Shown here piece after piece: positions 5,953-58,540 of a stretch of DNA of 64,000 nt. How positions within the stretch are numbered: the first letter of the stretch is position 1; each line of letters opens with the position of its first letter. The notes below the pieces were generated by a model, which made no database searches, had not been told where the DNA came from, and saw nothing but the letters and a program-made list of their open reading frames with translations. Origin of the DNA: Alphaproteobacteria bacterium (lineage in GTDB: Bacteria; Pseudomonadota; Alphaproteobacteria; UBA828); the NCBI GenBank assembly GCA_965200925.1, contig OZ241738.1:1858291-1922290 (forward strand), in the 5' to 3' direction. The translations under genes were made by a program, and so were the position numbers.

Positions 5953-8190
5953 TCACTCGCGGGCGAGGAAGCGAAGAGGCCGGACGGCATCCGGTGGGCG
6001 CCCGGCGAATAGCCCGCCGCCCTTGTGCGCGCTGCGGCCGATGACGAGCGGCCCAGTCCGCGCTGTAGGGAAGACGAGGCGAAGGCGGCCCGCAAGCCCA
6101 CCGCGTGGCCCGCGTCGCGCCGCGAGAACCTCGATGGCATCCGGCACCAGGATCGGCCAGTCGCAACGCCGGAGCTCGGCGGCGACGTCGGCCTTCAGCG
6201 CCTCTTCGTCGCCGAGGCGGCGGCGGTGGCGGGTTACGTCGTACTCGGTCACGCTTTCCCAGACCCGCGACGGGGCGAACAGCGGGTCGCCATCCTCGTC
6301 GACCAGCGCAGGCGCGAGCCTCAACAGGCCGGCTCGGCCGGCGCGCAGGATGTCCATCCCCTCCAGGGCGCGCGTCATCAGGCGGTGGTCGTCCGCGATT
6401 TCCTGCCACTTCACGCCGTGACGCTGCATGCGGTTGGGCGCAAGGTAGAGGATGCGCTGGCGCGGCAGGTCGGCGAGAACGGCGACATGGCGGTGAACGC
6501 CGCCGCCGGCCGGCGCGCCGCCTGCTGCGTGGCCGCTCACATAGGACGGGAGCTGCTCGCGTGGCGGCAGGCTGTCTTGCACCCGCGCCATCATCGCCCG
6601 GCGCGCGGCGTGCGCGACCGGCACGGGTCCGGTGCCGTCGGCAAGCCCGTCCGTTATGACGAAGGCCGACACGTCGCGCGCCGAATCGCTCGGGCGCATG
6701 AGTCCGAGGCCGAGATAGCGTCCGTCGCCCAACACGAGCGGCCCCGCGACCGGTTCGGCGAAAGCCATCTCGACATGCCAGAGCGCTTCCTTGGGGAAGC
6801 GCGTTCCGGATGCGAACGCTTCGGCGCGCTCGCCGCGTCGGTCGAACGGTTCGCGTTGTACGCGCACTCCATCGGCCGGCGCACGAATCCCGGCGTGGCG
6901 CAACGCCTGGCGAACGGCCGCCGCGGCGCGCGCATCCTCGGCGGCCCGTTCGTGCCCGGCTTTCCTCTCGTCCATCCGGCGGGTCGGTTCGATCCGCCGC
7001 CGGCGCGCCATCGGCAGGGCGAGCGGCGTCACGCTCCGCCAACGCTTCCCCCGCTGTTCGAAACGATCGACCATCCGGTCGTCGCCGGCACGGCGCAACT
7101 CCCTCTCAATCACGCCGTCTCCGTCCGCCCAGGATATTTGTGCAAAAGCCCATGCGAGATCGTCTGCCTTCAGAGGGCATGATTGCGGGACGTAAACGGC
7201 GACACGGCGGATTGCCGGCACGACGTCGGGATGACCGACAGACGGAATCGGCGTGATCCGCACCCGCATCGCCTTGTCCGCGTCGGTTGCACCACGGCCG
7301 ACCAAGTAACGCTCGATGCTGTCCGCGAGGTCTGGCACCGCGTCTCGGAGAAGAACCGCCGCCTTGTCGCGCACCGTTTCGACGAGCACCGCTGCCGCGC
7401 TCAAAGACCACTCGCTCAAAGACCCAAGGGCGAAGGTGTCGGTGCCTTTTCGCAGGTCGAAGACGAGCCGGTGCGGACGGGCGTCGTAGGTGATCTTGGC
7501 CAGCAGCGGTTTGGGCGGTTGCACGAAAACGCGCACCGGCTTGCGATTGGTTCCGCCGACACGGAAGCGGTTTCGCATGTTCTCGAAACGCTCGGTCAGG
7601 CTTGCTCCCGTTCCGGGGCGGGGGCAAAGAAAGCTCCGCTCCGTTCCGCTGCCTCCCGAAGGTCGATGGACGATCCCGCCATGACCGGCTAGCTGTTCCT
7701 CCGCCTCGTCGGCGTCGGTCACCGCTGCTTCGGCCCAAGCCATGTCGATCCCCCGGCCAAGTTGATAGAGATTCTCCGCCATCGCGCAAAGCGTCGTCGC
7801 TCGCGCATCGGGAGCGACGACGGGCCAGCAATAGAGGATCGGCGATTTGGCATCAAACAGGACAGGCTGGATCCGCTTGCCGACGCGGACCGCGGCCACC
7901 GCCTTATCCAGATCGGGCGTCTTCCCCTTCGACAGTTCCGCGTCGAGATCGTTATTGGGCACGAAGCTGGTATAGTCTTTGCTGCGGAGACCATGCGGCG
8001 CCGCGATGACCGGCGGCGGCAGGCGCTCCAGCCAGCCGAGTGCGTCTCGAACATCGGGCGGCACCGTCGCACCGCGGGCCGCCCCGGCCATCAGTGCTTG
8101 GAACAGTCGCGCCGGTGCGGGCGGCCAATCGCCCATTCCGTGGTAGCGGCCCTCGTGGAACCGTACCGCGATGACAAGCGCTTGCATCAT
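5953..8190 (-). CDS. csb2: Type I-U/I-G Cas protein, Csb2-like (putative Cas5-Cas6 fusion; GSU0054 family), 745 aa
   Basis: It is the last gene of the cas3 operon. Its N-terminus MMQALVIAVRFHEGRYHGMGDWPPAPARLFQALMAGA recalls the GSU0054/Csb2 family. At 745 aa it is longer than typical Csb2, so it could be Csx17/Cas8u2 or carry an extra domain. Confidence 0.55.
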   Translation of the reverse strand: MMQALVIAVRFHEGRYHGMGDWPPAPARLFQALMAGAARGATVPPDVRDALGWLERLPPPVIAAPHGLRSKDYTSFVPNNDLDAELSKGKTPDLDKAVAAVRVGKRIQPVLFDAKSPILYCWPVVAPDARATTLCAMAENLYQLGRGIDMAWAEAAVTDADEAEEQLAGHGGIVHRPSGGSGTERSFLCPRPGTGASLTERFENMRNRFRVGGTNRKPVRVFVQPPKPLLAKITYDARPHRLVFDLRKGTDTFALGSLSEWSLSAAAVLVETVRDKAAVLLRDAVPDLADSIERYLVGRGATDADKAMRVRITPIPSVGHPDVVPAIRRVAVYVPQSCPLKADDLAWAFAQISWADGDGVIERELRRAGDDRMVDRFEQRGKRWRSVTPLALPMARRRRIEPTRRMDERKAGHERAAEDARAAAAVRQALRHAGIRAPADGVRVQREPFDRRGERAEAFASGTRFPKEALWHVEMAFAEPVAGPLVLGDGRYLGLGLMRPSDSARDVSAFVITDGLADGTGPVPVAHAARRAMMARVQDSLPPREQLPSYVSGHAAGGAPAGGGVHRHVAVLADLPRQRILYLAPNRMQRHGVKWQEIADDHRLMTRALEGMDILRAGRAGLLRLAPALVDEDGDPLFAPSRVWESVTEYDVTRHRRRLGDEEALKADVAAELRRCDWPILVPDAIEVLAARRGPRGGLAGRLRLVFPTARTGPLVIGRSAHKGGGLFAGRPPDAVRPLRFLARE

Positions 8191-8193
8191 GGC

Positions 8194-10136
<1,943 letters not shown>

Positions 10137-12977
10137 CTAGTGCGTCCCCTCCGCACTGGCCGTAAACAAATCGCGTTGCGCGACCGATTCCGAGGTGGCC
10201 TGTTCCCTCTTCCCCATCGGTTTTCGTGCCGCCTCTTCTTTCAGACGCCTGGACGCCCGTTGATCGGCGGCTCGCAACAGCGCCTCCCACCAAGCGAGAC
10301 CCCACGGCCCCCACTGTCGCTGCAACCGTGCGAAGCGCATGGCGATCTCGCGCGCCTCGCCTGCCGCCGCGCTCGGCGGCAAGGAGTCGCAGCCCCCGAT
10401 CTCGATGGCGGGGCGGGCATTGCCGTGATGCGCCGCGATCAAATGCAATGCCAGCTCGAACCGTGGAGTGCCGCGTTCGATTCCGTCGAGGCCGCGGCGT
10501 TGCGCGTCGAGCATCGATCCGAACTCGTGCCTGTAGCCGTTCAGAACATGGCGGTTGAATGGACCGGTGGTCTTGGCATAGGGGCCTCCATTTCGGTCGG
10601 CGTTGAAAGCACGTTGCCAGCGGGGAGCCGCCTTTCCATCGTCATGGTGGCGGGCGACGGCAGCAAGCATCGTCTGATCTCCCTCCGAAAGACCGATCTC
10701 CTCCGCGATGCGCATCGCCTCGTCCGCGACCCACGCTTGATGCTCGTTCAGGGGCTGCGCCTTCGGAGCCATCGATCGGATTTCTTCATTGTCCTCCGCA
10801 TCGTACCGCTTCTCGACGATCAGCCGGATTTGAGGCTCCCCTTCTGGAGAGACCAGGTACGGCATTTCAAATGTCTTGTTCCAGAGTGCTTCGGGCTCCG
10901 TGGACTCGTTCCCGCGCACCGGCCGGACCCGAATGGCCGACGGATTCTCTCCCCGGACTTTGCCCCAGTTATCTTCGATCGTCGGCACCGGCTCATCACG
11001 GCCGTCGGCCAGCAATCCGTTTTCGACCCCGCCAAGCCGGGCATCCACTACCATCCTCCGTCCGGCAAGCCTTCGATTCAGTTCCTTCACGGGCAGGTCG
11101 TGCACGCTATTCAAATCGAGTTTTGCCTCCTGCTTCCCTCCGTGATCAAGCTTCCCTCCGTAATCAAGCAGGAAAGCGACAGGAATGTCCTGTCGTATCG
11201 GTTGAAGGAGATCGAAACCCGTCGCCCCGTCTGTCGAAGGGGCAGCCTCCGCCCTTTTGTGGAGTGTTCTCAAGAGTTTGCGTGCTCGTTTCCTCAACCA
11301 GTCCACGACCCGCCGCGTCTCGGTTTCGAGCAGTTCCTCGGTTTGCAGCGGGGCGTTCTCGAAGAACGCCTCGATTTCGCTCTTGGGTATCTCGATAGGG
11401 TCATGGCTTCCGTCGCTTTCGAAACGCAGCGGCAAGCAGTGACGCCAAGCGATGGTCATCTGCGGCTCGTCGTCCACCCAACCCCGCAGCCAAGGCGTCA
11501 CTTCCGGCCGGCCCGTGTGTTCGGCCAGCGAGGTCATCGCCCAGGCATCGACCAGGGGTCGGGAAAGCGCCGGATAGAGGGGCATCGGCGTCGAGGCCAT
11601 TTCGATTTCCCCGGCACTCACTTCCTCCCGAAGACGAGAGAGCGCGGCGGGGCTAGCGTCGCGATCGCCTGTTTCCGCCCGCGGCAGGGCTTCAAGCAGC
11701 TTCCGCACGGCCTTGTGGCGGGCGATTCCGTCCTTGCTCGATGCCTTCTCTTCCGGTGGCCCTTGGTCGATCACCAGCACCTGCGCCGCTCCCGCGCCGC
11801 GTCGGTTCACCCGGCCGAGCCGCTGCACCATGCGTTCCCACGCCACCAGATCGCAGACCATGTGATCGGCGTCGAGATCGACACCGACCTCGCCGGCGGA
11901 CGTCGCGACCAGAAACACCGGAGCGGATGGCGCGGCGGCGCTATCGGCAATCAAACCGTGCGTCTTCAAGTCTCCGGCCGCTCCTTCCCGTTCATGCACG
12001 CGCCGCCCACCGACGAACAGGATCGCCTTGGCTTCGGGTTCCTCTTCCTTGATCCGCTTCTTGAGGCTGGTCTCCACTTTCTCCGCCACCGAGCGCCGGT
12101 CGCAGTAGATCACTATGCGCGGCGGCCTGTCTCCCACGGCGGTTTCCTCCTGTGCCAGCCGCCAAGCCCGTTCGGCGAACGCTCCAGCGAGGGCATCGTC
12201 CTGCTTCCCCCCGCTTTCGAGATTCCCTATCGACAGCGCCTTGACCGCATTCAGTCGCTTGCGGACGATCCCGTTCTCCCGATCCTCGTCGTTGAGACGA
12301 AACGACTCCTCTTCGCCGCACAGCGTTGCCGACAGCGGCAGCATCCGGAAGAGGGGTGGCAGTCCCGGGCTGGCCGCCGGGCCGGAGAACACGGAGCGCC
12401 TCTTTTCGATGGTTTGCAGCAGGCGGTGGAACGGGCGGGCGAGATGCGCTTCGTCCAGCACCACCAGAGTGTCACAGCCCATCAGGCCCGCCTCGTAGGG
12501 CCACATACGCCGGGAGACGCCATAGCCCGAGAACAGAAGCCGTGACCCGACCATATCGACGGTGCCGACGACGATTGCGGGCGCGGCCGGATCCTCCAGC
12601 CACTCCCGATTGTCGCGATAGCGGCCGCGCAGGGTGGAGATCGGCAGCGGCCGTCCGTCGAGGCCGAGTGCCCGGCGCACCGGGTCGAGATCGTCGCGGC
12701 AACACAGCGTGTCCCGGATACGCACGGCGAATGCGGTGGCCTGATCGACCACCGCGCGCCGGTCGACGACATAGACCAGTCGCCGGGGCAACTGTGTGCC
12801 GCCGGCCAGCGCCAGCAGCCAGAGCGCCATGACGTCGGTTTTGCCGAGGCCTGTCGGGATATCGACCGCCGACGGCAGGCAGCCCGAGGCGAGCAACCCG
12901 AACAGCCGGCGTTGCCACGGGAAGGGCGGGTACCCAGCCAGCGCCTCGAAGGCGGTATCGAAATCGAACCTCGGCAT
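10137..12977 (-). CDS. cas3: Cas3 helicase-nuclease with a C-terminal HD domain (type I-U/I-G architecture)
   Basis: N-terminal DEAD/DEAH helicase motifs (PWQRRLF..., DIPTGLGKTDVMALW, VLDEAHL). HD-nuclease motifs (ARHHDDGK, HLIAAHHG) lie at the C-terminus, which is diagnostic of the I-U/I-G Cas3 arrangement. The start was chosen at MPRFDFDTAF (12977), preceded by a GGGGAG RBS; the longer ORF starts at 13070. Confidence 0.85.
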   Translation of the reverse strand: MPRFDFDTAFEALAGYPPFPWQRRLFGLLASGCLPSAVDIPTGLGKTDVMALWLLALAGGTQLPRRLVYVVDRRAVVDQATAFAVRIRDTLCCRDDLDPVRRALGLDGRPLPISTLRGRYRDNREWLEDPAAPAIVVGTVDMVGSRLLFSGYGVSRRMWPYEAGLMGCDTLVVLDEAHLARPFHRLLQTIEKRRSVFSGPAASPGLPPLFRMLPLSATLCGEEESFRLNDEDRENGIVRKRLNAVKALSIGNLESGGKQDDALAGAFAERAWRLAQEETAVGDRPPRIVIYCDRRSVAEKVETSLKKRIKEEEPEAKAILFVGGRRVHEREGAAGDLKTHGLIADSAAAPSAPVFLVATSAGEVGVDLDADHMVCDLVAWERMVQRLGRVNRRGAGAAQVLVIDQGPPEEKASSKDGIARHKAVRKLLEALPRAETGDRDASPAALSRLREEVSAGEIEMASTPMPLYPALSRPLVDAWAMTSLAEHTGRPEVTPWLRGWVDDEPQMTIAWRHCLPLRFESDGSHDPIEIPKSEIEAFFENAPLQTEELLETETRRVVDWLRKRARKLLRTLHKRAEAAPSTDGATGFDLLQPIRQDIPVAFLLDYGGKLDHGGKQEAKLDLNSVHDLPVKELNRRLAGRRMVVDARLGGVENGLLADGRDEPVPTIEDNWGKVRGENPSAIRVRPVRGNESTEPEALWNKTFEMPYLVSPEGEPQIRLIVEKRYDAEDNEEIRSMAPKAQPLNEHQAWVADEAMRIAEEIGLSEGDQTMLAAVARHHDDGKAAPRWQRAFNADRNGGPYAKTTGPFNRHVLNGYRHEFGSMLDAQRRGLDGIERGTPRFELALHLIAAHHGNARPAIEIGGCDSLPPSAAAGEAREIAMRFARLQRQWGPWGLAWWEALLRAADQRASRRLKEEAARKPMGKREQATSESVAQRDLFTASAEGTH

Positions 12978-13126
12978 CACGACTCCCCGCCGGAATCTGG
13001 AGGCGGTCCACAGGAAAGGCTTGCGATCCATGATTGCTCCTGTATATCTCGTTTCAGGCGCCCGAGCCAAGACCTAGACCCGTGGCTTCGGCTGCGTGAG
13101 GAGATTTTGGGCACCTCCGGGCGCCG

Positions 13127-13501
13127 CTATCTCCCCCCAGGGCGAATCAGGCGGCCGCGGCGATAGGCGGCGGCGACCTGATTCGGCTTGATCCGGTGGA
13201 ACGTGACGAGAAAGGTCTGGCGCCGATCATCCGTGCATTTGACGACGGCTCGCCACCATTTGCCTTCGTCGAGCTCCGCCGTGAACACCAAGGTGCGGTC
13301 CTTCTCCAAGATTGCCGCCCCTTGGTTGATCACCTTCTGCAAGCGGCTGTAGTCACCAAGTGTGACATCCGGGTGGCGCTCTCTCTGCTTGGCGGCTGTC
13401 TGTCGGGACAGGCGCACGAAACGTGAGTGCCCACCCAGCTGGGCCAGGAGGGAGTCGTCGAGCGCGGCGACTGTCTCGTCTGATGTAGAGGATCGGTTCA
13501 T
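13127..13501 (-). CDS. Hypothetical 124-aa protein directly upstream of cas3 (possible RelE/ParE-like small toxin fold)
   Basis: ORF MNRSSTSDETVAALDDSLLAQLGG...TLVFTAELDEGKWWRAVVKCTDDRRQTFLVTFHRIKPNQV. Alternating beta-strand-like segments followed by an 'HR' motif recall RelE/ParE/HigB-type toxins; there is no confident family assignment. Confidence 0.35.
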   Translation of the reverse strand: MNRSSTSDETVAALDDSLLAQLGGHSRFVRLSRQTAAKQRERHPDVTLGDYSRLQKVINQGAAILEKDRTLVFTAELDEGKWWRAVVKCTDDRRQTFLVTFHRIKPNQVAAAYRRGRLIRPGGR

Positions 13502-13536
13502 CGCTTCATGGTCTGAGGTAGCCGCTCCGATCATCA

Positions 13537-15193
13537 CTACCTCGATCCTGGTCGCTTCGTCAATGGGCACATATGGCGGTACATGAAGCCATTGACGACC
13601 GTGCGAGTAGCATGATAGGGAAGGTGCCGGGCTGCCGAACCAGCAGCCTGGCACCTCATGCCATCGGTATGGAGTCTCATTGAAGCATGTAGCGCCACAG
13701 GTGCTGATGGGCGCGATGCCAAAACTTCCGGGGCCACTGTTGCCCCGGCCTCATTGGAGCGGGGGGAGGGGGGCTCGACAGCCTCGGCTGCATACGGGCT
13801 GGACGGCGACCCCTCCAGCAAACGACTACCCCCAATCTCGGGCGCATCCTCCCGGTCGAGGCGGCCGTGGTTCACCAGCCGTATGCGGATCGTCATCGGC
13901 GAGACGCCGAAATGTTTGGCCACGCTGGTCTGTCTGTCTTCGGAGAGGTCGTCCGCCAGCAGGTCGTCCACGGCGGCGAAGGGGCTCAGCAGTTCGGCGG
14001 CGAAGGCACGCTGCGTCCTCTGACGGTAGCTGATAGGTCCGCGTCGCAGGGAATAGCGTTTCGGCGGGGCAATCGGCCCGGGCGGCGAGCACGCGGTCGC
14101 CGATCAGGCGCGCCAGTTCGAAGCGCCTGCCCGTCTTCCATCTGGACCGCAGCACCAAGCGCGCGCCGCCGCCCGACCCGTCGAGCGCGAAGCACAGGCC
14201 GTCCGAGCGCCGGTGCGTCCGAACGAGCGCGTCGGGCGTCGTTCCCGCCAGGGCCGCGAGCCGCGTGTCGGGGATCGGCTGCCCGTCCAGCCTCTCCCGG
14301 TCGCGGATCTCCCGGGCGACCCCGTATCCCACGCGCCAAGCTTCGGCTTCTCCCGACCGTGGCGTTCCCGCCGCACGGGCTGGTGCCACCGCATCCCTCG
14401 GGTCGGCGTCGAACCCGTGCCGCCGCGCGATGTCCGCGACGCCTTCCGCCGATATCATGTCTTCCAGGGCGCGGCCGCGCAGGGCCGCGTCGGCGGCCAC
14501 TTCACCCCACGCCTCTTCTCCGAATTCCGATGTGCCCGCGAGATGGCGGCGGATCGTGGCTGCGTCGGCCGCATCCGGGTCGCAGCCGAGCTGTGCCTCC
14601 AGCCGTCGGAAGCGCGCCAGTTCCGGGTCCCGTCGCTCCGCCGTCAGGTCGTTCCACAGGCGGTGAAGGTTCGTCGCCCGCACTCCCCGCTCGTCGAGAC
14701 GGGCCAGGACGTCCGTCGCGAAGTCGTCGATGGCGGCCTCGAGGCCGGCGGCCGGGATCGCTTCCGGGTGCGCCGCGCCGACATAGGGAAACAGCACCGA
14801 ATCCGGTTCCGGAGACGGCTCGGAGGCGAGGAACGACAGCAGCCCGTCCGAAAAGATCGTGACGTTGGGCCAAGCATAGCCGCCGCCGATGGCCGCCATG
14901 CGGTGGGCGAAATCCCAGTCGTGCGCGGCCTTTTCCTCGGAGGGCCGCCCGAGCTCCCATCGCAACCGCCACCAGTTCCAAACGAGCCACTCGGCGATGG
15001 GATAGGCGGCAAGGCGAGGTCCGTGGCGAAACTCCCGGCGGTCGGTGTCTTCGATCATGGTGAGATGTCGGCTGTTCACCGTCATCGTGAACAGGCCGAG
15101 CGTCGCCCGTTCCTCCGCCGAGTCGGGCGAGGCTTCCTCATCGGTGAGGGCAGATAGGGCGATCGTCAGCACGTGGGGCATCTCTCGCGCCAT
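13537..15193 (-). pseudogene. Large uncharacterised protein (about 500 aa) whose C-terminus is ImmA/IrrE (COG2856/M78)-like; an apparent +1/-1 frameshift lies near 14020-14035
   Basis: Frame 1 (15193 to about 14030) reads MAREMPHVL...YPIAEWLVWNWWRLRWE...GRRFELARLIGDRVLAARADCPAETLFPATRTYQ. An adjacent frame continues ...QRAFAAELLSPFAAVDDLLADDLSEDRQTSVAKHFGVSPMTIRIRLVNHGRL. The latter matches the E..AN.FAAELLmP and 'fgVS..a...Rl' motifs of ImmA/IrrE peptidases. The position where HEXXH is expected reads RLIGD, an apparently inactive catalytic site. The frame-1 tail after the shift is low-complexity Arg/Pro. Confidence 0.4.
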
Positions 15194-15588
15194 TCCTCGA
15201 TCACGCCGCGCCGGCCCGGGTCTTCGCGACCCAGCATGTAACCGTGATAGTCTCCGCCGCTTCCCAATACGGCTTCGTAAGCACGGCCATTGGAATCGAC
15301 CGCCCAGACGTATTTCGGCAGCCCGTTCTTGCGGAAGCCGCTGACCATCCCCCGCCCGATGCCTTCCCGGAAAAGAGCCTGTGCCTGAGCCTTCTCGATG
15401 GCACCGCACATCGACTTGTTCCTGCGCGGATTCACCGGCGGATGGAAGCCGTAATCGGCGGGCTGGCGCTTGTGGTGGGCGCTGCCGACGTAACGCATTT
15501 CGCCCGCCAAGTGTTCCAGGATGCCCGGGGCGATCGTGCCCTTTCGGGCGATCAGGCGTTTGGGGTCGTTTCCCTGGCGTTTGGACAT
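15166..15588 (-). CDS. Hypothetical 140-aa protein (weak microbial-RNase-like motifs), first gene of the three-gene cassette
   Basis: ORF MSKRQGNDPK...FRKNGLPKYVWAVDSNGRAYEAVLGSGGDYHGYMLGREDPGRRGVIEEWRERCPTC. The Y-H-x-Y...G-R-R-G-V-I segment loosely resembles the barnase/RNase Sa core (YHEYTV...RGTRRII), but the acidic catalytic residue is not evident. The start at 15588 was verified (ATG TCC AAA CGC...). Confidence 0.4.
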   Translation of the reverse strand: MSKRQGNDPKRLIARKGTIAPGILEHLAGEMRYVGSAHHKRQPADYGFHPPVNPRRNKSMCGAIEKAQAQALFREGIGRGMVSGFRKNGLPKYVWAVDSNGRAYEAVLGSGGDYHGYMLGREDPGRRGVIEEWRERCPTC

Positions 15589-15692
15589 GGCGGCATGTCT
15601 TCCCGATACTCCACGGTGTCTACCCGGCCTCGCCACCCAAGGCAAGGCGACCGCAAGCCCACCGAAACACGGTGGGCACCGGGAGCCGCTCC
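15589..15692. promoter_or_regulatory. Divergent intergenic region between the minus-strand three-gene cassette/cas3 operon and the plus-strand cas4-cas1-cas2-array
   Basis: A 104-bp gap between divergent start codons, with a GGGAG RBS at 15681-15685 before cas4-cas1. It is the obvious location for divergent promoters, though none was mapped. Confidence 0.3.
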
Positions 15693-17444
15693 ATGACCTC
15701 CCAGCAATTGGAACTCCACCTCCCCGCGCCGCCGGCGATCGGCGACTCACCGCTGGTTCCGGCGCGGATGGTGAACGAATTCGTCTATTGCCCGCGTCTG
15801 GCCTATCTGATGTGGGGGCAGGCCGAATGGGCGGAAAGCGCCGATACCGTGGACGGGCGGCGCGTCCACACCCGGGTCGACCGGGCGGGCAAGCCGCTGC
15901 CCGCGCCCGCAGCGCTGGAGGGCGAAGGTGGTGACGAGAAGATCGTCAGCCGCTCTCTCACGCTGTCCTCCGAAAGGCTCGGCGTGATCGCGAAGATCGA
16001 CATCGCCGAGGCCGCGGACGGGGCCGTCACGCCTGTCGACTACAAGCGGGGGAAGCGGCCGCACGTCGCCCGCGGGGCCTACGAGCCCGAGCGCGTCCAG
16101 GTATGCCTCCAGGCGCTGCTGCTGGAGGAGCATGGCTACCGGGTGGAGGAAGGCGCGATCTGGTACGCGGAGGGCCGCGAGCGGGTCCGTGTCGCGCTCG
16201 ACGACGACTTGCGCGCGGCCGCACGCGACGCGGTGAGCCGGCTGCGGCTCACGGTCTCCAACGGCCGCATCCCGCCGCCGCTTCGCGACAGCCCCAAATG
16301 CCCGCGCTGCGCCCTGGTCTCGATCTGTCTTCCCGACGAGGTGCGCGCGCTCGGCGGCTCGGATCTCGCGCCGCGGCCGATCGCCGTCCCCGCCGACGAG
16401 GCATTGCCGCTCGTGATCCAGTCCCAGCGGGCGCGCGTCACCAAGGAGGGTGACACCCTCAAGGTCGCCGACGACGAACAGGAAGAGACCACGGTGCGCC
16501 TGAACGAGGTGTCCGACGTCGCGCTGTTCGGCAACGTTTCGATCACCGCGCCCGCGCTGGCGGCCTGCATGGAGCGCGAAATCCCCGTCGCCTTCCATAG
16601 CCACGGCGGTTGGTTCCGCGGGGTCGCTCACGGCGTCGGCCACCGCAACGTCGAGGTCCGCATCGCGCAATACCGGTCAAGCTTCGACGACGGTTTCCGC
16701 CTCCGCTTCACGCGCGATCTGGTCGCCGCCAAGATCGTCAACCAGAGGACCATTCTGCGGCGCAACTGGCGGGGCGAGAAGGACGCCCGCGGCGCGGTGC
16801 TCGCCCGGCTCGACGCGGCGCGCAAGTCGGCCGCCGGCGCCGGTTCCCTGGACGCACTGTTGGGCCTCGAAGGCGACGCCGCCGCGACCTATTTTCGCGC
16901 CTTCGCCGGCCTGCTGGCGCCGCCCGAGGCGGGTGGGGCGGCCGGCGACTCCGGCGGGCCGGGCGGAGTCACATCGTTCCGTTTCGAAGCCCGAAACCGC
17001 CGCCCGCCGACCGATCCGGTGAACGCCATGTTGTCCCTGGCCTATGCCATGCTGACCCGGCATATGACGGTCGCCGCCGCCACAGTCGGGCTCGACCCCT
17101 ACCGTGGCTTCTTCCACGCGCCGCGCTACGGCCGGCCCTCCCTGGCGCTGGACATCATGGAACCGTTTCGCCCGCTCGTCGCCGATTCGGTCGTGCTCTC
17201 GGCCGTCAACACGGGCGAGGTCTCGTCGGGCGATTTCATCGTCGCCGCCACCGGGACGGCGCTGACCACCGCGGGGCGTCGTCGCTTCGTTGCCGCGTTC
17301 GAACGGCGCTTGTCGCAGGAGACCACCCATCCCGTCTTCGGCTACCGGCTCAGCATGCGCCGGCTGTTGACGATGCAGGCTCGGCTGCTGACCCGGCATC
17401 TCCTGGGGGAGCTCCCGCACTATCCCCACTACCTGCCGCGGTGA
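15693..17444 (+). CDS. cas4-cas1: Cas4-Cas1 fusion protein
   Basis: The N-terminal Cas4 RecB-like nuclease (EFVYCPRLAYLMW, four Cys including CPRCALVSIC) is fused to Cas1 (…VALFGNVSITAPALAACMEREIPVAFHSHGGWFRG…, …DPVNAMLSLAYAML…). Cas4-Cas1 fusion is a hallmark of type I-U/I-G. Confidence 0.85.
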   Translation: MTSQQLELHLPAPPAIGDSPLVPARMVNEFVYCPRLAYLMWGQAEWAESADTVDGRRVHTRVDRAGKPLPAPAALEGEGGDEKIVSRSLTLSSERLGVIAKIDIAEAADGAVTPVDYKRGKRPHVARGAYEPERVQVCLQALLLEEHGYRVEEGAIWYAEGRERVRVALDDDLRAAARDAVSRLRLTVSNGRIPPPLRDSPKCPRCALVSICLPDEVRALGGSDLAPRPIAVPADEALPLVIQSQRARVTKEGDTLKVADDEQEETTVRLNEVSDVALFGNVSITAPALAACMEREIPVAFHSHGGWFRGVAHGVGHRNVEVRIAQYRSSFDDGFRLRFTRDLVAAKIVNQRTILRRNWRGEKDARGAVLARLDAARKSAAGAGSLDALLGLEGDAAATYFRAFAGLLAPPEAGGAAGDSGGPGGVTSFRFEARNRRPPTDPVNAMLSLAYAMLTRHMTVAAATVGLDPYRGFFHAPRYGRPSLALDIMEPFRPLVADSVVLSAVNTGEVSSGDFIVAATGTALTTAGRRRFVAAFERRLSQETTHPVFGYRLSMRRLLTMQARLLTRHLLGELPHYPHYLPR

Positions 17445-17455
17445 GGCGCGCCACC

Positions 17456-17749
17456 ATGAACGACGAACGGACCTACATCGTGGCCTACGACATCGCCGAT
17501 GCCCGGCGGTGGCGCCGCGTCTTCAAGACCATGAACGGCTTCGGCGAATGGCTGCAACTCTCGGTGTTCCAGTGCCGCCTGTCGCGCCGTCGCCGCGCGG
17601 AGCTGGAGACGCGCCTGCGCGAGATCGTCAAGACGGGCGAGGACCACGTCCTGCTGATCGACGTCGGTCCCGCGGAGAAGACGGAGCTGGCCGTCGCGAG
17701 CATCGGCAAGACGTTCGCTGCTATTGAAAGGCAAGCGATCGTGATATGA
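17456..17749 (+). CDS. cas2: Cas2
   Basis: 97-aa protein MNDERTYIVAYDIADARRWRRVFKTMNGFGEWLQLSVFQCRLS... (the canonical Cas2 N-terminal beta-strand with YD). It lies 11 nt downstream of cas4-cas1 and about 230 nt upstream of the array. Confidence 0.85.
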   Translation: MNDERTYIVAYDIADARRWRRVFKTMNGFGEWLQLSVFQCRLSRRRRAELETRLREIVKTGEDHVLLIDVGPAEKTELAVASIGKTFAAIERQAIVI

Positions 17750-17979
17750 TGCGCTCGATCGAAACGCGCCGGGGCGGTCCTGCCGCGCGGATTCGAGCGG
17801 TCCACAGGCGCAGCGCGACCGGGGAGCGTTCGAAAACGCCAAGGCCCTTGCTCCCGTTGGGGTTATTGACATCGTGAAGATCGCCACCACACTGATCCGG
17901 GCACCTACCGGACATGAAACGAGACGCGCTCGACAATGCGCAAAATCCGCTATGGGCTACAATGGGTTATAAGGTGGCC
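17750..17979 (+). promoter_or_regulatory. CRISPR leader
   Basis: 230-bp non-coding stretch between cas2 and the first repeat. It contains a TTGACA hexamer (17867-17872) and an A/T-rich segment (…TATGGGCTACAATGGGTTATAAGG…) immediately before repeat 1. Confidence 0.5.
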
Positions 17980-20900
17980 GTTTCCGGGGCTCTATTGCCC
18001 CGGCCTCATTGAAGCTGGTTCCGGTGCGCCTCAGCTGAACAATCCCCTGTGCGTTTCCGGGGCTCTATTGCCCCGGCCTCATTGAAGCAGCTCCCAATGC
18101 GGCATGTCGACGATGCTTTGCCAGTCGCGTTTCCGGGGCTCTATTGCCCCGGCCTCATTGAAGCGATGTCCGCGTCGCTGTCGATGTAGGTCTCGCGGTG
18201 TTTCCGGGGCTCTATTGCCCCGGCCTCATTGAAGCCGCGCCGACACGAACATGCAGATCACGGCCGCACGGTGTTTCCGGGGCTCTATTGCCCCGGCCTC
18301 ATTGAAGCGATACCTTGACGGTTGTTGATGAGCGCAAAGTATTCGGTTTCCGGGGCTCTATTGCCCCGGCCTCATTGAAGCCGAGATGTATGGCTATCAG
18401 ATGGGAGCGTTTGATGGGTTTCCGGGGCTCTATTGCCCCGGCCTCATTGAAGCGCTGCCAGTGACGAGACCATGTCTCCCGAGCCCGTGTTTCCGGGGCT
18501 CTATTGCCCCGGCCTCATTGAAGCGCACGGTCGAACAGGTTCGCGCCCGTCTCAAGACGGAGGTTTCCGGGGCTCTATTGCCCCGGCCTCATTGAAGCAC
18601 CATCTGCAGGCCGAAGCCTCTGCTCATCCTGGTGGTTTCCGGGGCTCTATTGCCCCGGCCTCATTGAAGCGTTCCAGGAAACAACTTATCCATCCGGGCG
18701 GCATCGTTTCCGGGGCTCTATTGCCCCGGCCTCATTGAAGCGAGCCTGCTGGTCGTACTGATCCTCCGTCTCCTCGTGGTTTCCGGGGCTCTATTGCCCC
18801 GGCCTCATTGAAGCGTCTCGAGCAGGAGAGAAGATCAAAAATCTTTCCTGGTTTCCGGGGCTCTATTGCCCCGGCCTCATTGAAGCGCGTGTGCGTCGAG
18901 GGCCCTGGCGCCGAGGCCGGTGTGTTTCCGGGGCTCTATTGCCCCGGCCTCATTGAAGCTTAAGGAACACTCACCTCACTAGGTACGACGAGGGTCGTTT
19001 CCGGGGCTCTATTGCCCCGGCCTCATTGAAGCCCGTATATTGCCTGCCGGCTGTAATGATCCCAATCGGTTTCCGGGGCTCTATTGCCCCGGCCTCATTG
19101 AAGCGGTGTCTTCGATACCCTCACCGTTGTCTCTGAACGCGTTTCCGGGGCTCTATTGCCCCGGCCTCATTGAAGCGTCAGCGCCCGCAATGTCCAGCGT
19201 GCGTGTGTCTACGTTTCCGGGGCTCTATTGCCCCGGCCTCATTGAAGCCACGGCTTCGGACATCCGCAGTCCAGTCACCCATCTCGTTTCCGGGGCTCTA
19301 TTGCCCCGGCCTCATTGAAGCCGGCGGCAGCGCGAGACGAAGGTACCAGTGAGCGTCCTCGTTTCCGGGGCTCTATTGCCCCGGCCTCATTGAAGCCTCG
19401 CCCGCGTCTACCCTCCTGCCCTGCTCTTCCGTCGTTTCCGGGGCTCTATTGCCCCGGCCTCATTGAAGCGATCCGCGTCGTACCTGATGTCTAGTCCATT
19501 TGATTGGTTTCCGGGGCTCTATTGCCCCGGCCTCATTGAAGCCTGAAGCCGATAGCGCCCATAGCCTCTCTCGCTGCTCCGTTTCCGGGGCTCTATTGCC
19601 CCGGCCTCATTGAAGCCTTTTGTTGGTGACCCTTCTCAGGTTGAGGTCCAGGTTTCCGGGGCTCTATTGCCCCGGCCTCATTGAAGCCCCGGAGCATGGC
19701 GTCGTGCAGCTTCTCGGCTGCATCGTTTCCGGGGCTCTATTGCCCCGGCCTCATTGAAGCGAAGGTGAATGGGAAGGTGTCATTCGCCTCGCGTCTGTTT
19801 CCGGGGCTCTATTGCCCCGGCCTCATTGAAGCTCGTAGGCATCCTCGATGTCGATACGCGCCTCCGTCGTTTCCGGGGCTCTATTGCCCCGGCCTCATTG
19901 AAGCATCAAGGCACTCTTGCTCGCTTGGCTAAGCTGCTCCCTGTTTCCGGGGCTCTATTGCCCCGGCCTCATTGAAGCGAGTCTGGCGAGGCCTCTAAGG
20001 CGCGTGATCACGCCGTTTCCGGGGCTCTATTGCCCCGGCCTCATTGAAGCGCATAGTCGATTCGGAGGTGCATCATGGCAAAGCGTCGTTTCCGGGGCTC
20101 TATTGCCCCGGCCTCATTGAAGCGAATGCCCCAGGCGGAACATCCCGCCCTTGACGCGGGTTTCCGGGGCTCTATTGCCCCGGCCTCATTGAAGCGCTTC
20201 GCTGAATATCGCTGGGTGTTTGGGAAACAGAAAGTTTCCGGGGCTCTATTGCCCCGGCCTCATTGAAGCAGACGGCGTGTGTCTATATGGAAGGCGCCCG
20301 TCCTGCGTTTCCGGGGCTCTATTGCCCCGGCCTCATTGAAGCGTATCAGGTCTCCCTCGAGGTGGATCCGCCACTCTGGGTTTCCGGGGCTCTATTGCCC
20401 CGGCCTCATTGAAGCCGGACGAGCTCCAGGACGATCTCCGCTTCACGATAGGTTTCCGGGGCTCTATTGCCCCGGCCTCATTGAAGCCTGGCGAACTGGA
20501 TCTCCAGGCGTTGGACATTGACACTGTTTCCGGGGCTCTATTGCCCCGGCCTCATTGAAGCGATGTCGGCATCGCTGTCGATGTAGGTCTCGCGGTTGTT
20601 TCCGGGGCTCTATTGCCCCGGCCTCATTGAAGCACCCCCGTCGTACTTAGTGAGGTGAGTGTTCCTTAAGTTTCCGGGGCTCTATTGCCCCGGCCTCATT
20701 GAAGCGCCACGGCATGGCGTCGACTGCGAGGGACGGCAATGCGTTTCCGGGGCTCTATTGCCCCGGCCTCATTGAAGCGTACTCGTCCGCGTCCCACGTC
20801 CACTTGTCTCCGAAGGTTTCCGGGGCTCTATTGCCCCGGCCTCATTGAAGCTCCCCCGCCTCGAAGCCCACGGTCGCAATGTCGCAGTTTCCGGGGCTCT

Positions 20901-32900: not shown

Positions 32901-34746
32901 CCCGGCCTCATTGAAGCACCTTGTCGTTGACTGCCGGGATAGCCGCTGCAACTGGTTTCCGGGGCTCTATTGCCCCGGCCTCATTGAAGCCTGTGGCGAA
33001 ACCCGCCGAGTCGTGAATGGATGGCCCGGGTTTCCGGGGCTCTATTGCCCCGGCCTCATTGAAGCCCGTCGCTTTGGCCTTGGGGATTGGCCAGCGCCGG
33101 CAAGTTTCCGGGGCTCTATTGCCCCGGCCTCATTGAAGCATGGCTTGCTCCTAGGGGTTGGGGTTGGGGGCTAACGGCGTTTCCGGGGCTCTATTGCCCC
33201 GGCCTCATTGAAGCGGCGCCGTGACCCTTGCGTGGGCGATCGCCCTACCCGTTTCCGGGGCTCTATTGCCCCGGCCTCATTGAAGCCCGGTGCTGCCAAC
33301 TACAATGCCGCCGATGGTGCCGAGGGTTTCCGGGGCTCTATTGCCCCGGCCTCATTGAAGCTTCGTGACACTCATCGCGCCGCCGTCAGGTCGTGGCGTT
33401 TCCGGGGCTCTATTGCCCCGGCCTCATTGAAGCTAGCGCCCGGTATGGGCGACGTGGTGGCCCCTGTCGGTTTCCGGGGCTCTATTGCCCCGGCCTCATT
33501 GAAGCTTCCTTGTCGGTCGTGCCAGGTCTCTGGAGCGACAGGTTTCCGGGGCTCTATTGCCCCGGCCTCATTGAAGCCCCGTCAAGTCGTTGGGCGCGCA
33601 AGCCCAACCACCCGGGTTTCCGGGGCTCTATTGCCCCGGCCTCATTGAAGCGAGGGTCAAGCCGTCGTCGAGCAGGCGGTCTGCCTCGTTTCCGGGGCTC
33701 TATTGCCCCGGCCTCATTGAAGCACTGCCGGTCGACGACGTCCGCGCCGAGCGAGGAGTGTTTCCGGGGCTCTATTGCCCCGGCCTCATTGAAGCGAGAT
33801 AGCGTTCGATATTGCCGGCCGGGTCTTCGGTCGTTTCCGGGGCTCTATTGCCCCGGCCTCATTGAAGCGTTCGAGACCGCCATGTATTCATCGCGGTCTT
33901 GGTGTGTTTCCGGGGCTCTATTGCCCCGGCCTCATTGAAGCTGGTTGTTTTTTGCTATGGCTAGGTATGCCTATGATCTGTTTCCGGGGCTCTATTGCCC
34001 CGGCCTCATTGAAGCCAGCGATACCATAATGCCTGGCGCTATGCCGTCGGGTTTCCGGGGCTCTATTGCCCCGGCCTCATTGAAGCTACTACTTCCCCCT
34101 TGAAGGTTCCGCGTCCGCCGGTGTTTCCGGGGCTCTATTGCCCCGGCCTCATTGAAGCCAGTCTGAGCAAGCTGCTCTCGGTCGTGATTTTCAGGGTTTC
34201 CGGGGCTCTATTGCCCCGGCCTCATTGAAGCCCGACCCAGGTTTCGGGTTCTCCTGATCCGCCATCGCCAGGTTTCCGGGGCTCTATTGCCCCGGCCTCA
34301 TTGAAGCTCGCGCGAAGCGTAGGCATCGCGTCATAGGACGGGTTGTTTCCGGGGCTCTATTGCCCCGGCCTCATTGAAGCCCGGTGCGGGGCCGGCGGCC
34401 GACTGGAGTTGCATCGTTTCCGGGGCTCTATTGCCCCGGCCTCATTGAAGCTCGACGAGCTGTGCCCTCGCCGTCGCGGCGGCCGCCGTTTCCGGGGCTC
34501 TATTGCCCCGGCCTCATTGAAGCGGCGCGCTGCCGGAGCCGGCGCGTGCCGCCGAGATGCGTTTCCGGGGCTCTATTGCCCCGGCCTCATTGAAGCGATT
34601 GCTGCCGCTGTCGAGGCTACTAAGGCCGAGGCGGGTTTCCGGGGCTCTATTGCCCCGGCCTCATTGAAGCCCAGTGGGCGCGGTCAGTCAGGTTGCGGAA
34701 GTAGGCGCCGGTTTCCGGGGCTCTATTGCTCCGGCTTCGTCGAAGG
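17980..34746 (+). CRISPR. CRISPR array, about 230 copies of the 36-nt repeat GTTTCCGGGGCTCTATTGCCCCGGCCTCATTGAAGC; spacers are 35-40 nt; the terminal repeat is degenerate
   Basis: A perfectly periodic 72-74-nt unit runs from 17980 to 34670. The repeat contains the palindrome CCGGGGC-TCTATT-GCCCCGG and ends in ATTGAAGC, the end typical of type I-C/E/U-like repeats. The last unit (34711-34746) is mutated (…TTGCTCCGGCTTCGTCGAAGGGC). The repeat count was estimated from length divided by period, not counted exactly. Confidence 0.95.
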
Positions 34747-58076: not shown

Positions 58077-58540
58077 GCGCGAATCCAGAAGATGACGATG
58101 GCAGCGATGCATATGGCGCTGAAGAAAGTGTGCGCGACTGTCGTATCGGGCGGCAATGCGCCGCCAGCCCCTGCGCCTTCAGAACATGCGTTCGATCAGG
58201 TCGCGCCGTTTGTAGAGGTTGACATTGAAGGCGAATGGAAATATGCTCGCTGTAGGATTTTCTCGATCGAACGGCTCGACGACTCCACTGCCAATCAGCC
58301 CTCGATAGTAATTCGACCCTCGGCAACACACGAATCGAAATCAGCCCTGCCGAATCCTTTGCGGCTTTTATCGAAATTCCTAATGTAGAAATTATATTTC
58401 TCCCTAAGAATGCCCCGTAGTCTTTTCTGTTGCTGCCGTCCTGAACGCCTTATTTCGTCGAGCAGCTCACGAATTTCACTCGCCTCTCTAACAGAAAACA
58501 AGCGGCCACATAAACGGGAGAGGCGTTGAGGGTGTGGGCA

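Follow-up and report, generated by a model that had tools for sequence, protein, structure and literature searches.

A predicted autorepression element, a candidate phage-derived toxin and a decaying gene pair share the interval between cas3 and cas4/cas1 of a type I-G CRISPR-Cas locus

The CRISPR-Cas locus in the window (the whole stretch of 64 000 nucleotides analysed here) raises the question of what occupies the interval between cas3 and the cas4/cas1 gene, where three open reading frames, termed A, B and C below, had been annotated as a single cassette. That the surroundings are a type I-U/I-G locus was borne out by NCBIfam matches: cas3g (10137-13070, minus strand; TIGR02621, E 1e-192) lies immediately downstream of gene C and is followed by cas8g2, cas7g and csb2, and cas4g/cas1g (about 15690-17444, plus strand; NF049935, E 7e-228) diverges from gene A. 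A cas2 gene is also present, and the CRISPR array extends over 17980-34672. As first proposed, Pfam and NCBIfam searches placed none of them among the canonical I-G genes; all three have many homologues and are therefore far from chance reading frames. We consider that the interval holds three independent elements, namely a mini-CRISPR of the CreR/CreA kind, gene C and an A-B module, and that these are best read as a CreR/CreA-type autorepression circuit, with C as a possible CreP-like toxin and A-B as a decaying hitchhiker; we give this reading a probability of roughly 60%.

Genes A and C were present as annotated. The middle protein, drawn from 15193 to about 13537, proved to be split over two frames. 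Gene B (13826-15193, minus strand) starts at an ATG at 15193, overlapping A by 28 nt, and one frame (ORF 13826-15409), which stops at 13826, covers its 387 N-terminal codons; the QRAFAAELLSP and VAKHFGVSPMTIRIRL motifs lie in another (ORF 13537-13971). DNA alignment with the related loci L069 and L070 places the frame break at 14033, where the window has an extra T (ACCTA[T]CAGCTACCG, compared with ACCTACAGCTACCG in relatives), as supported by an intact homologue (P0121; 460 aa, 93% identical). Homologues of B, which number more than 1293, end in ...REDAPDIAGRGGGV, equivalent to about 13830 in the window, where conserved coding ceases. The in-frame stop that they have near this position is absent from the window, and the gene called here in the source genome (P0122, 451 aa) runs into an out-of-frame tail. 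We rejected the stretch from 13826 to 13537 as B coding sequence: it has no conservation as protein and carries a CRISPR-repeat-like element on the plus strand.

With its frameshift and lost stop in B, the A-B pair is decaying in the window. The strongest competing account is that assembly errors produced the B frameshift and the odd 3' ends and that the organism has all three genes intact, and we give it a substantial minority chance. Two of the three anomalies fall at G runs, one (G5, 13832-13836) preceding the missing stop of B and the other (G6, 13133-13138) preceding the missing tail of C; one added G mends each, restoring a homologue-like reading of B and extending the C frame to 13074 with the tail seen in its relatives. 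Many of the related records are long-read metagenome assemblies, and A has no such lesion. The frame-breaking T at 14033, however, lies outside any homopolymer, and independent B relics surviving in loci L071 and L078 show that B decays in this lineage. A toxic A with B as its antidote would make a genuinely broken B lethal; it follows that the frameshift is a sequencing error, that the first 387 residues of B suffice, or that A is non-toxic.

In place of the supposed tail of B we found a previously overlooked mini-CRISPR (13676-13760, plus strand), through which the CRISPR machinery apparently represses its own promoter. The initial annotation saw a possible regulator of the operon in the proteins of the cassette; the actual candidate is this element, which it took for protein, a caution that reading by open reading frames only can make a protein tail out of a regulatory RNA gene. 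The remnant of pseudo-repeat 1 (13676-13686) consists of CTC followed by ATTGAAGC, corresponding to the Csb2 cleavage context and the 8-nt 5' handle of a crRNA. Next come a 38-nt pseudo-spacer (13687-13724, ATGTAGCGCCACAGGTGCTGATGGGCGCGATGCCAAAA) and pseudo-repeat 2 (13725-13760, CTTCCGGGGCCACTGTTGCCCCGGCCTCATTGGAGC), which keeps the hairpin, matches Rfam CRISPR-DR16 (32.3 bits, E 4.4e-5) and agrees with the array repeat at 29/36 positions, compared with at most 21/36 anywhere in 29 kb of control sequence. In type I-G systems, the handle is 8 nt long, crRNA is processed by Csb2 with cleavage 4 nt 3' of the hairpin, and the PAM is TTN (10.1101/2022.08.08.503147).

This layout of handle remnant, spacer and hairpin recurs in 8/8 related loci. 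In all eight loci examined, the remnant CATTGAAG[C/G/T] precedes the hairpin pseudo-repeat by 33-40 nt, with ATTGAAG[C/G/T] of pseudo-repeat 1 kept in every case. Conservation of pseudo-repeat 2, except for a variable loop, extends to L069, L071, L074, L076 and L077, and also to L070 and L072; the hairpin stem is kept, and in L070 it carries a compensatory change. The 5' part of the pseudo-spacer is likewise conserved among loci (ATGTAGCGCCACAGG, GTGTGGCGCCACAGG or ATGTGATGCCACAGG). In relatives without A-B (the L076 and L077 layouts), cas4/cas1 begins 30-38 nt after pseudo-repeat 2.

The predicted target of the pseudo-spacer (13547-13587, minus strand) has a TTC PAM at 13587-13585 and a protospacer running from 13584 to 13547. 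Pairing occurs at positions 1-5, 7-11, 13 and 15-18 (site 13584-13567), positions 6 and 12 being mismatched. Across the related loci the target is found 83-104 nt away on the other strand, and in 8/8 the pseudo-spacer matches it at 13-15 of 15 scored positions beside a TTN PAM, a score reached by 0/2000 shuffles in every one of the eight. Position 12 is mismatched in all eight loci and position 6 in seven. Type I Cascade flips out every sixth base of the guide, which stays unpaired. A -35-like TTGACG (13558-13563, minus strand) lies in the PAM-distal part of the target, adjoining the paired site, and TTGACA, TTGATG and TTGACT are found at the equivalent offset in L071, L076 and L077. The start codon of C follows 50-160 nt downstream of the TTGACN box, which is a sequence motif belonging to a presumed promoter of C and cas3; a consensus promoter scan called neither this promoter nor a creR promoter in the window.

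From these features we infer that the mini-CRISPR is transcribed away from C and that Csb2 would cut the transcript to a crRNA-like RNA made up of the 8-nt handle, the 38-nt pseudo-spacer and the 3' hairpin, which would load into I-G Cascade and guide it to the TTC-flanked site. With pairing confined to the first 16-18 nt, Cascade would bind but not license cutting by Cas3, and because it would be bound against the -35 box of the presumed C-cas3-cas8g2-cas7g-csb2 promoter, the effector would repress its own operon. C would then be the first gene under a Cascade-repressed promoter, acting either as a CreP-like toxin or as an accessory that works on RNA and is not toxic; in the former case it would be released, along with more Cas protein, upon loss or titration of Cascade or its block by an anti-CRISPR. 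The convergent mini-CRISPR and a presumed dedicated, apparently Cascade-targeted promoter separate B from C, so that read-through from A-B into cas3, as originally suggested, is unlikely to be the main route of expression.

Gene C (13127-13501, minus strand; alternative start at 13534) encodes 124 aa that resemble a stand-alone MuF-C/PBECR domain, and it heads the presumed transcription unit of the interference genes. C has 14 close homologues, and a profile search gave about 1060 distant ones. The match of C to Pfam MuF_C (PF18819) has an E of 0.005 and 17.3 bits, under the gathering cut-off of 27.6, and among 15 family members MuF_C matched two and PBECR3 one, all weakly. The homology to the C-terminal domain of MuF head proteins shows in the relatives found by profile (E 1e-31 to 1e-19), of which 6/10 sampled are Phage_Mu_F fusions; L075 is the Phage_Mu_F protein of a Mu-like prophage, encoded beside Portal_Mu, with a C-terminal domain 30% identical to C. 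The residues conserved over 146 relatives (S43, T46, K49, Q50, H54, Y62, K99, T101, H113 and R114) are all retained in C. These include putative active-site residues, H54 (conserved in 133/146) and T101 (124/146) along with K99, H113 and R114, and this combination of His, Lys, Thr and Arg agrees with the PBECR active site of a His within the N-terminal helix together with a C-terminal Thr/Ser (PMC5512222). C is predicted to be a phage-derived RNase domain. The RelE/ParE-like look first ascribed to it had no counterpart in the RelE/ParE models of Pfam or NCBIfam; in a broad sense, the MuF-C/PBECR assignment supports membership of the BECR (barnase-EndoU-colicin-RelE) superfamily.

Close relatives of C were found only in type I-G loci, as shown by all 8 further loci looked up, which represent two I-G gene orders, and C is the first interference gene in each. 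The suggestion that homologues would co-occur with such loci was therefore upheld for C; it failed for A-B, which lies near cas genes in 1/68 other loci. C is absent from all of these 68, and A-B is absent from most C loci, so the three genes do not form one cassette.

Is C needed for the circuit at all? Loci L069 and L070, which lack C, keep the mini-CRISPR and its target; the circuit can therefore do without C, and toxicity of C is not required. On a strictly autoregulatory account, the mini-CRISPR would be a CreR tuning Cas levels only, and C would be a non-toxic I-G accessory, for example a helper that binds or trims RNA for crRNA or CreR, lying first in the operon by chance. C indeed looks like an operon member, co-oriented with cas3 and 50-150 nt upstream of it, and the MuF-C of phage Mu itself is described as a PBECR that is inactive and probably binds RNA (PMC5512222). 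Distant solo relatives of C also occur in ordinary chromosomal contexts, among housekeeping genes and with no obvious immunity gene, which argues against strong toxicity of the fold. Set against this are the retention in C of every conserved residue, the occurrence of one relative in toxin position, at the C-terminus after the PT-TG domain of a polymorphic toxin, and of another in a toxin-antitoxin island, and the fact that, because Csb2 processes crRNA, no known I-G function needs an extra RNase. We consider this account possible, if on balance unlikely, and prefer the circuit with C as a candidate toxin.

Turning to the remaining genes, A (15166-15588, minus strand; 140 aa) is the first of the A-B pair and belongs to a strongly conserved, unnamed family. 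Its 173 homologues (identity 49-99%) have no Pfam domain, and the residues invariant in the family alignment include H39, K40, Y46, R55, C61, K92, W95, E105 and Y114-H115-G116-Y117. In the AlphaFold model (pLDDT 78) the C-terminal half is alpha-beta3-alpha, with resemblance to MqsR, RelE and CdiA-CT; the matches to these small RNase toxins are weak, and, as all structural scores fall below the usual significance level, none is confident. Like all the motifs quoted in the initial annotation, the letters of the barnase/RNase Sa-like stretch previously pointed out (Y-H-x-Y...G-R-R-G-V-I) are present, although G-R-R-G-V-I is not conserved across the family, and A was rejected as a barnase or RNase Sa with the corresponding fold and catalytic Glu/Arg/His. 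This small, highly conserved protein is possibly a toxin. The gene is intact in the window.

A and B occur together in 66/68 other loci, overlapping and co-directional, and these loci are drawn from at least 8 bacterial groups. The pair often lies within restriction-like or BREX operons: it is found between an SNF2 helicase and DUF1156 methylase/DUF499, between ResIII and a methylase, and adjoining BrxL, SNF2-PLD, a TrwC relaxase and the end of a type I-C array; about half of the sampled neighbours are housekeeping genes. Type II toxin-antitoxin pairs characteristically consist of neighbouring co-directional genes that are passed on together in unrelated contexts, and we accordingly regard A-B as a probable mobile two-gene module, a toxin/antitoxin-like hitchhiker unrelated to CRISPR function. 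It would have been inserted, in opposite orientation, between the mini-CRISPR and cas4/cas1, and modules of this type may lodge inside defence operons more generally. The proposal of a toxin/regulator module riding on the locus hence keeps its toxin/antitoxin part and loses its CRISPR-specific one.

B has the CapP/IrrE (ImmA) or M78 fold, and its N-terminal part resembles CdiI in fold. HExxH is found in the M78-fold domain of 0/53 B sequences; judged by positional equivalence in sequence, its place is taken by an invariant R-F-x-L-A-R-L-x-G-D. The same 53 sequences have no downstream Glu ligand, the segment Y-R-Q-K-M-Q-R-A-F-A-A-E having no Glu at the expected position. Since it has no HExxH, B is not a peptidase, and of the ImmA/IrrE-type regulator or peptidase that had been envisaged, the fold and the two C-terminal motifs remain. 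The large partner would combine an immunity-like N-terminal domain with a catalytically dead ImmA/IrrE/CapP-fold domain, and may neutralize A or sense on its behalf.

These properties make it improbable that A-B responds to damage or infection and switches on the defence operon beside it, in the manner of ImmA/ImmR, IrrE/DdrO or CapP/CapH. Besides the missing zinc ligands, no HTH repressor partner (ImmR, DdrO or CapH) occurs beside B, whose constant partner is A, other neighbours varying; A itself has no HTH match in Pfam or NCBIfam; and the neighbours are too varied for one cognate operator. Least probable is the view first put forward, in which A, B and C would form an accessory module dedicated to CRISPR, co-transcribed with cas3 and working with the I-G effector: all three genes are on the cas3 strand and A-B takes an equivalent place in I-G loci of two gene orders (L070 and L074) despite B proteins only 59-70% identical, but 67/68 A-B loci have no cas gene within 10 kb, C and A-B seldom meet, B is broken or a relic in three loci, and the mini-CRISPR and a separate presumed promoter intervene between B and C.

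At its most far-reaching, our reading would make C a Cascade-repressed PBECR ribonuclease, the second and a mechanistically different class of CRISPR-repressed protein toxin after the KilAC protein CreP, rendering type I-G Cascade addictive and punishing anti-CRISPR attack, and would make A-B a new, very widespread two-gene abortive-infection or toxin-antitoxin system whose sensor is a zinc-less ImmA/CapP-fold domain, preferentially lodging inside other defence operons. This joint proposal is tentative. In any event, the locus offers a clear case, seen across several genomes, of what would be crRNA-like self-regulation in the type I subtype that has been studied least, and the mismatches at positions 6 and 12 of the predicted target are a directly testable prediction of Cascade binding without cleavage. 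C is a new candidate CRISPR-guarding gene, a phage MuF-C/PBECR domain apparently captured by a cas operon; if toxic, it would carry the CrePA concept over to a further subtype and toxin chemistry and could serve in screens for type I-G anti-CRISPRs. A-B, an unnamed pair that has more than a thousand members and occurs inside restriction-like, BREX and CRISPR operons, may represent a new conflict module that includes a dead-protease version of the CapP/IrrE fold.

Among known systems, A-B is closest to MqsRA and HigBA, in which the toxin gene comes first, and to CdiA-CT/CdiI, these also being overlapping co-directional pairs that move as a unit across genomes; A weakly recalls the MqsR, RelE and CdiA-CT folds and the N-terminal part of B that of CdiI. 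Unlike the partners in type II toxin-antitoxin or CdiA-CT/CdiI pairs, B is of great length (455 aa) and lacks a DNA-binding antitoxin domain. Compared with ImmA/IrrE/CapP proteins (Peptidase_M78, COG2856), B lacks the zinc site, RLxGD replacing HExxH, and the HTH repressor partner; it has a 330-residue N-terminal extension and is paired with a 140-aa protein of unnamed family. C shares with the MuF-C/PBECR domains of phage head and polyvalent proteins (Iyer et al. 2017, PMC5512222; PF18819, PF18812) homology to the C-terminal domains of Phage_Mu_F and a conserved His in the N-terminal helix region followed by downstream Lys/Thr and His/Arg, but it stands alone on a chromosome inside a cas operon and scores under the Pfam gathering threshold.

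The mini-CRISPR has the make-up of CreR/CreA (10.1101/2023.03.10.532045, PMC9458426): two repeat-like sequences around a spacer-length one, outside the array in a cas intergenic region; pseudo-repeat 1 keeping the 5'-handle bases and pseudo-repeat 2 the hairpin and 3' handle, as the CreR/CreA design rule has it (10.1101/2023.03.10.532045); and a pseudo-spacer with partial, PAM-proximal complementarity to a site with the cognate PAM, in the window beside the presumed -35 box of the effector operon. It differs in that the subtype is I-G (I-U), for which CreR/CreA examples are mentioned only in a supplementary figure of the preprint (10.1101/2023.03.10.532045), and in that a foreign gene pair parts it from cas4/cas1 in the window. 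The counterpart of C is CrePA, the CRISPR-repressed protein toxin of Acinetobacter type I-F, in which CreP, a single phage-derived domain, is repressed by CreA (10.1101/2024.01.05.574328). Both are small single-domain proteins of phage families, encoded directly downstream of a CreA or predicted CreA-like target and confined to one CRISPR subtype (CreP in 50/50; C in 8/8 further loci and the window). C is a MuF-C/PBECR domain, a predicted RNase and candidate toxin, in contrast to the KilAC domain of CreP. Moreover, because C lies directly upstream of cas3 in the same orientation, unlike the arrangement in CrePA, the same promoter probably also drives the cas genes.

The window holds a complete type I-G (formerly I-U) CRISPR–Cas locus, as identified with NCBIfam, in DNA of 60–75% GC. 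On the minus strand lie csb2 (5953–8190), cas7g (8194–9255), cas8g2 (9252–10136) and cas3g (10137–13070), and on the plus strand cas4g/cas1g (about 15690–17444) and cas2 (17450–17749), with an array of approximately 230 repeats of GTTTCCGGGGCTCTATTGCCCCGGCCTCATTGAAGC (36 nt, period near 73 nt) at 17980–34672. This array is unusually long and occupies one quarter of the window; in L069, the locus of the closest relative, about 98 repeats are found in the 7.2 kb of array within that locus. In type I-G systems, Csb2 cleaves 4 nt 3' of the repeat hairpin to give an 8-nt handle (10.1101/2022.08.08.503147), and the layout of the repeat, in which the hairpin CCGGGGC...GCCCCGG is followed by CCTC and then by ATTGAAGC, is consistent with this arrangement. 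Local G+C drops to 0.57 at 45001–46000 and to 0.60 at 58001–59000, against a background of 0.68–0.72, and these stretches could be foreign insertions.

The initial annotation placed a single cassette of three minus-strand ORFs, here termed A, B and C, between cas3g and the adaptation genes. When the cas region was scanned with the array repeat, we observed a pseudo-repeat (CTTCCGGGGCCACTGTTGCCCCGGCCTCATTGGAGC) on the plus strand at 13725–13760, within what had been taken for the C-terminal tail of B. It matches the repeat at 29 of 36 positions, as against no more than 21 in a 29 kb control, and the same bases are matched by the Rfam family CRISPR-DR16 (E 4.4e-5). A further repeat candidate at 13764 (21/36) was rejected, being too near this pseudo-repeat and at about background level. 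The sequence CTCATTGAAGC, located 38 bases upstream at 13676–13686, corresponds to the last 11 bases of the repeat, namely the 8-nt 5' handle and the bases preceding the cleavage site. In published CreA and CreR elements, which encode regulatory crRNA-like RNAs, the handle persists in pseudo-repeat 1 and the hairpin in pseudo-repeat 2 (10.1101/2023.03.10.532045); the element in the window has the same layout, with a pseudo-spacer at 13687–13724. The handle–spacer–hairpin arrangement is found in all eight related loci (the window, L069, L070, L071, L072/L073, L074, L076 and L077), among which the loops of pseudo-repeat 2 are variable and the stem in L070 carries a compensatory change. Judged from these comparisons, the ‘tail’ of B is a putative CreR/CreA-type mini-CRISPR on the opposite strand that had been read as protein.

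Each of the eight loci has, 83–104 nt away on the opposite strand, a site that is matched by the first 16–18 nt of the pseudo-spacer. Six of these predicted targets have the PAM TTC, one has TTT and one has TTG, and the type I-G PAM has been reported as TTN (10.1101/2022.08.08.503147). Between 13 and 15 of the 15 scored positions are matched, and the observed score was reached by none of 2000 shuffles in each locus. Mismatches occur at position 12 in all eight loci and at position 6 in seven. In type I Cascade, guide positions 6 and 12 are flipped out and unpaired. Without selection for Cascade binding, this pattern of mismatches is difficult to account for. On the minus strand of the window, the predicted PAM (13587–13585) and the paired stretch of the target (13584–13567) are followed by a TTGACG −35-like box (13563–13558), and C may start at 13534 or at 13501, respectively 50 nt and 83 nt downstream from where the target begins. 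Boxes at the same offset are present in L071 (TTGACA), L076 (TTGATG) and L077 (TTGACT). No second target was found near the promoter of A or of cas4/cas1; within ±4 kb, the site upstream of C is the only place outside the pseudo-spacer itself where the seed matches. A consensus promoter and terminator scan detected neither a sigma-70-type promoter for C or the mini-CRISPR nor a terminator after B, and the promoter assignments for C and the mini-CRISPR are made on the −35-like boxes alone. CreR-type autorepression is defined by partial PAM-proximal pairing beside the −35 box of the effector operon, and pairing of this form is predicted here; such elements have been noted for type I-U too (10.1101/2023.03.10.532045). 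We envisage that the mini-CRISPR RNA would be expressed and processed, and that Cascade would then repress the promoter of the effector operon. As a prediction from sequence, an autorepression circuit at this locus is well supported. The TTGACG boxes at 13593–13598 (plus strand) and 13558–13563 (minus strand) are divergent and 30 bp apart, with the predicted target between and over both, so that Cascade binding could repress the mini-CRISPR's own promoter besides that of C.

ORF A (15588–15166, 140 aa) and ORF C (13501–13127, 124 aa) are as originally described. A mechanical ORF list begins A at a GTG at 15750 (194 aa) and C at a GTG at 13654 (175 aa), and family alignments place the true starts at 15588 for A and at 13501 (or 13534) for C. 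The 175-aa version of C (13654–13127) would cross both the predicted target and the promoter. What had been described as one large middle protein is not a single ORF; it is divided between two frames, 13826–15409 (the first 387 codons) and 13537–13971. Its motifs QRAFAAELLSP and VAKHFGVSPMTIRIRL are indeed present, but in the frame of the second ORF and not in the N-terminal frame of B. Intact relatives of B read ...LFPATRTYSYRQRAQ.AFAAELLSP... in a continuous frame, and DNA alignment with them reveals a single extra T at 14033 of the window, ACCTA[T]CAGCTACCG, which is outside any homopolymer. The source genome's own gene call for B (P0122, 451 aa, 100% identical) continues out of frame, and the stop codon of the relatives falls about 95 codons before the end of the second frame. 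With one more G in the G5 run at 13832–13836, the stop of B would fall at the relatives' position; with one more in the G6 run at 13133–13138, C would have the tail ...EIAAPGGAQNLLTQPKPRV common to most relatives, ending at 13074. These anomalies in G runs look like homopolymer errors of long-read assembly or true slippage. The frameshift in B may itself be a sequencing error; a frameshifted B also fits the repeated loss of A–B in this lineage described below. The DNA between C and the next gene (13074–13126) is conserved in the window, L071 and L074, even with a different downstream gene, and is read in different frames by different gene callers (APGGAQSLLAQPKPRV versus RRPEVPKVSSRSRSHGSRS); this stretch may be non-coding and serve as a regulatory or RNA element.

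A belongs to a tightly conserved family of 140–145 aa (173 matches at 49–99% identity) that has no Pfam domain and in which H39, K40, Y46, R55, C61, K92, W95, E105, YHGY114–117 and W133 are invariant. Scanning one genome per species gave 68 loci, which span Alphaproteobacteria, Binatia, Dehalococcoidia, Spirochaetia, Rhodothermales, Nitrospirales, Frankia and others. A B homologue directly follows A in 66 of these, mostly overlapping it, and these homologues align unbroken over the position of the window's frameshift. C was present in none of the 68 loci, and cas genes lie within 10 kb of A–B in L027 only. In that locus (10001–13249) the pair abuts the distal end of a type I-C array with the repeat GTTTCAATCCTCACCGGCCCGTTAAGGCCGGTGCTTC, an independent second case of A–B beside a CRISPR. 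Defence or mobile genes also recur as neighbours. In six loci (for example L030, L043, L052 and L059, at about 6400–18900) A–B is flanked on one side by an SNF2/NOV_C helicase and on the other by a DUF1156 methyltransferase and then HEPN_Swt1-DUF499; in another six, including L049, L050 and L055, its flanking genes encode a ResIII protein and an N6_N4 methylase. BrxL, an SNF2-PLD protein and a TrwC relaxase were each seen once, and further neighbours are BipA, PPK2 and CobT.

Within the window's lineage, A–B also lies between cas4/cas1 and the interference genes in L069 (B 93% identical to that of the window), L070 (70% identical, with different flanking genes) and L074 (59% identical, with the other I-G gene order, cas7-csb2-cas3), and L071 and L078 contain B relics only. 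From this shared slot and the relics, this I-G lineage gained A–B once, has carried it since and is losing it repeatedly. No transposon-like ends or target duplications were found around the pair. In L076 and L077, which lack A–B, pseudo-repeat 2 is just 30–38 nt upstream of the cas4/cas1 start codon, which argues that A–B was inserted between the mini-CRISPR and the adaptation genes. Relics in related I-G loci (L071, 5285–5629 and 6438–6730; L072, 5381–5723; L078, 1163–1516) comprise a B fragment, cas4/cas1 fragments, a remnant of the B C-terminus fused before C, and a cas3g N-terminal fragment ahead of a replaced interference module; the place where the adaptation module meets the interference module has the look of a recombination hot spot. 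Because A–B in the window is convergent with the mini-CRISPR, the read-through from the cassette into cas3 that had been suggested is unlikely to be the main expression route. We conclude that A–B is a free-standing gene pair of an unnamed, widespread family, hitchhiking in the locus and not a CRISPR accessory. Of the initial annotation, both the observation and its interpretation hold in part. The supposed cassette is instead a composite of this pair, the putative mini-CRISPR and a CRISPR-confined C.

Searches of A, B and C against NCBIfam, PADLOC and PHROGs gave no usable matches, PADLOC having no model for A or B, and PDB sequence searches with profiles of the three found nothing significant. 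The barnase/RNase Sa-like identity proposed for A was rejected, since the motif is not conserved in the family and a structural match is absent; Foldseek against the PDB found nothing for A at E 0.001 or better. An alignment of A with the dsRBD is at chance level (E 1.1) and, although compatible with the alpha-beta3-alpha topology of the A model, is unsupported. B has roughly 1300 homologues, and Pfam matches only its C-terminal half, below threshold. An active metallopeptidase was likewise rejected for B: HExxH is found in none of 53 family members, the invariant TGRRF[ED]LARLxGDR occupying its expected place, and the downstream motif ...YRQKMQRAFAAELLSP lacks the ligand Glu. B is therefore a zinc-less and presumably non-catalytic version of the ImmA/CapP fold. 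In our working model A would be the effector, the N-terminal domain of B would neutralise it and the dead-protease domain would act as sensor, so that A–B may behave as a selfish or abortive-infection-type module lodging in defence operons.

C has 14 close relatives. All eight further loci looked up (L071, L072/L073, L074, L076, L077, L078 and L079) are type I-G, cover both I-G gene orders and include one locus with decayed adaptation genes; in each of them the gene that directly follows the predicted target is C. Pfam gives weak matches to MuF_C and PBECR3, below threshold. A metagenome scan for relatives of C found one locus only, L075, in a Mu-like prophage; here the relative (30% identity) is the C-terminal domain of a Phage_Mu_F protein encoded between Portal_Mu and the Mu protease/scaffold genes. 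A search with the C-family profile recovered 1060 relatives among 1.84 billion representative proteins. In six of ten sampled, all Phage_Mu_F proteins, the MuF domain is followed by the C-like domain, and in one of the six an ADP-ribosyltransferase is appended after that. In another of the ten the C-like domain comes after a PT-TG pre-toxin domain, where a polymorphic toxin has its toxin. Ten polar residues conserved over 146 relatives (S43, T46, K49, Q50, H54, Y62, K99, T101, H113 and R114) are all retained in the window. The RelE/ParE-like look ascribed to C holds at the level of the BECR superfamily (Iyer et al., PMC5512222) and not below it. More distant solo relatives lack a fixed association with CRISPR, with one amid housekeeping genes, one in a TacAT/HigBA island and one beside cas7g. 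C is, in sum, a CRISPR-confined MuF-C/PBECR gene under the predicted control of the mini-CRISPR.

The closest precedent is CrePA of Acinetobacter type I-F systems, in which the gene next after the CreA target encodes CreP, a lone KilAC domain of phage origin that has 50 homologues, all in I-F loci (10.1101/2024.01.05.574328). CreP is toxic and is released when anti-CRISPRs disable the effector (10.1101/2024.01.05.574328; review PMC12737573). C resembles CreP in where it lies and how large it is, in coming from phage and in being restricted to a single subtype. That C is the toxin of the autorepression circuit is plausible but unproven, and we put its chances at somewhat less than even. The chief alternative is a non-toxic role for C, as an accessory acting on RNA. 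C also differs from CrePA: it has a predicted RNase domain where CreP has KilAC, the circuit is present without C in L069 and L070, and C lies immediately upstream of cas3 in the same orientation, which makes co-transcription with cas3 probable. Both C, as a PBECR candidate toxin, and the dead-ImmA gene pair A–B deserve experiments. None of A–B, the mini-CRISPR and C is categorically new; each adds a member or variant to a kind already known.
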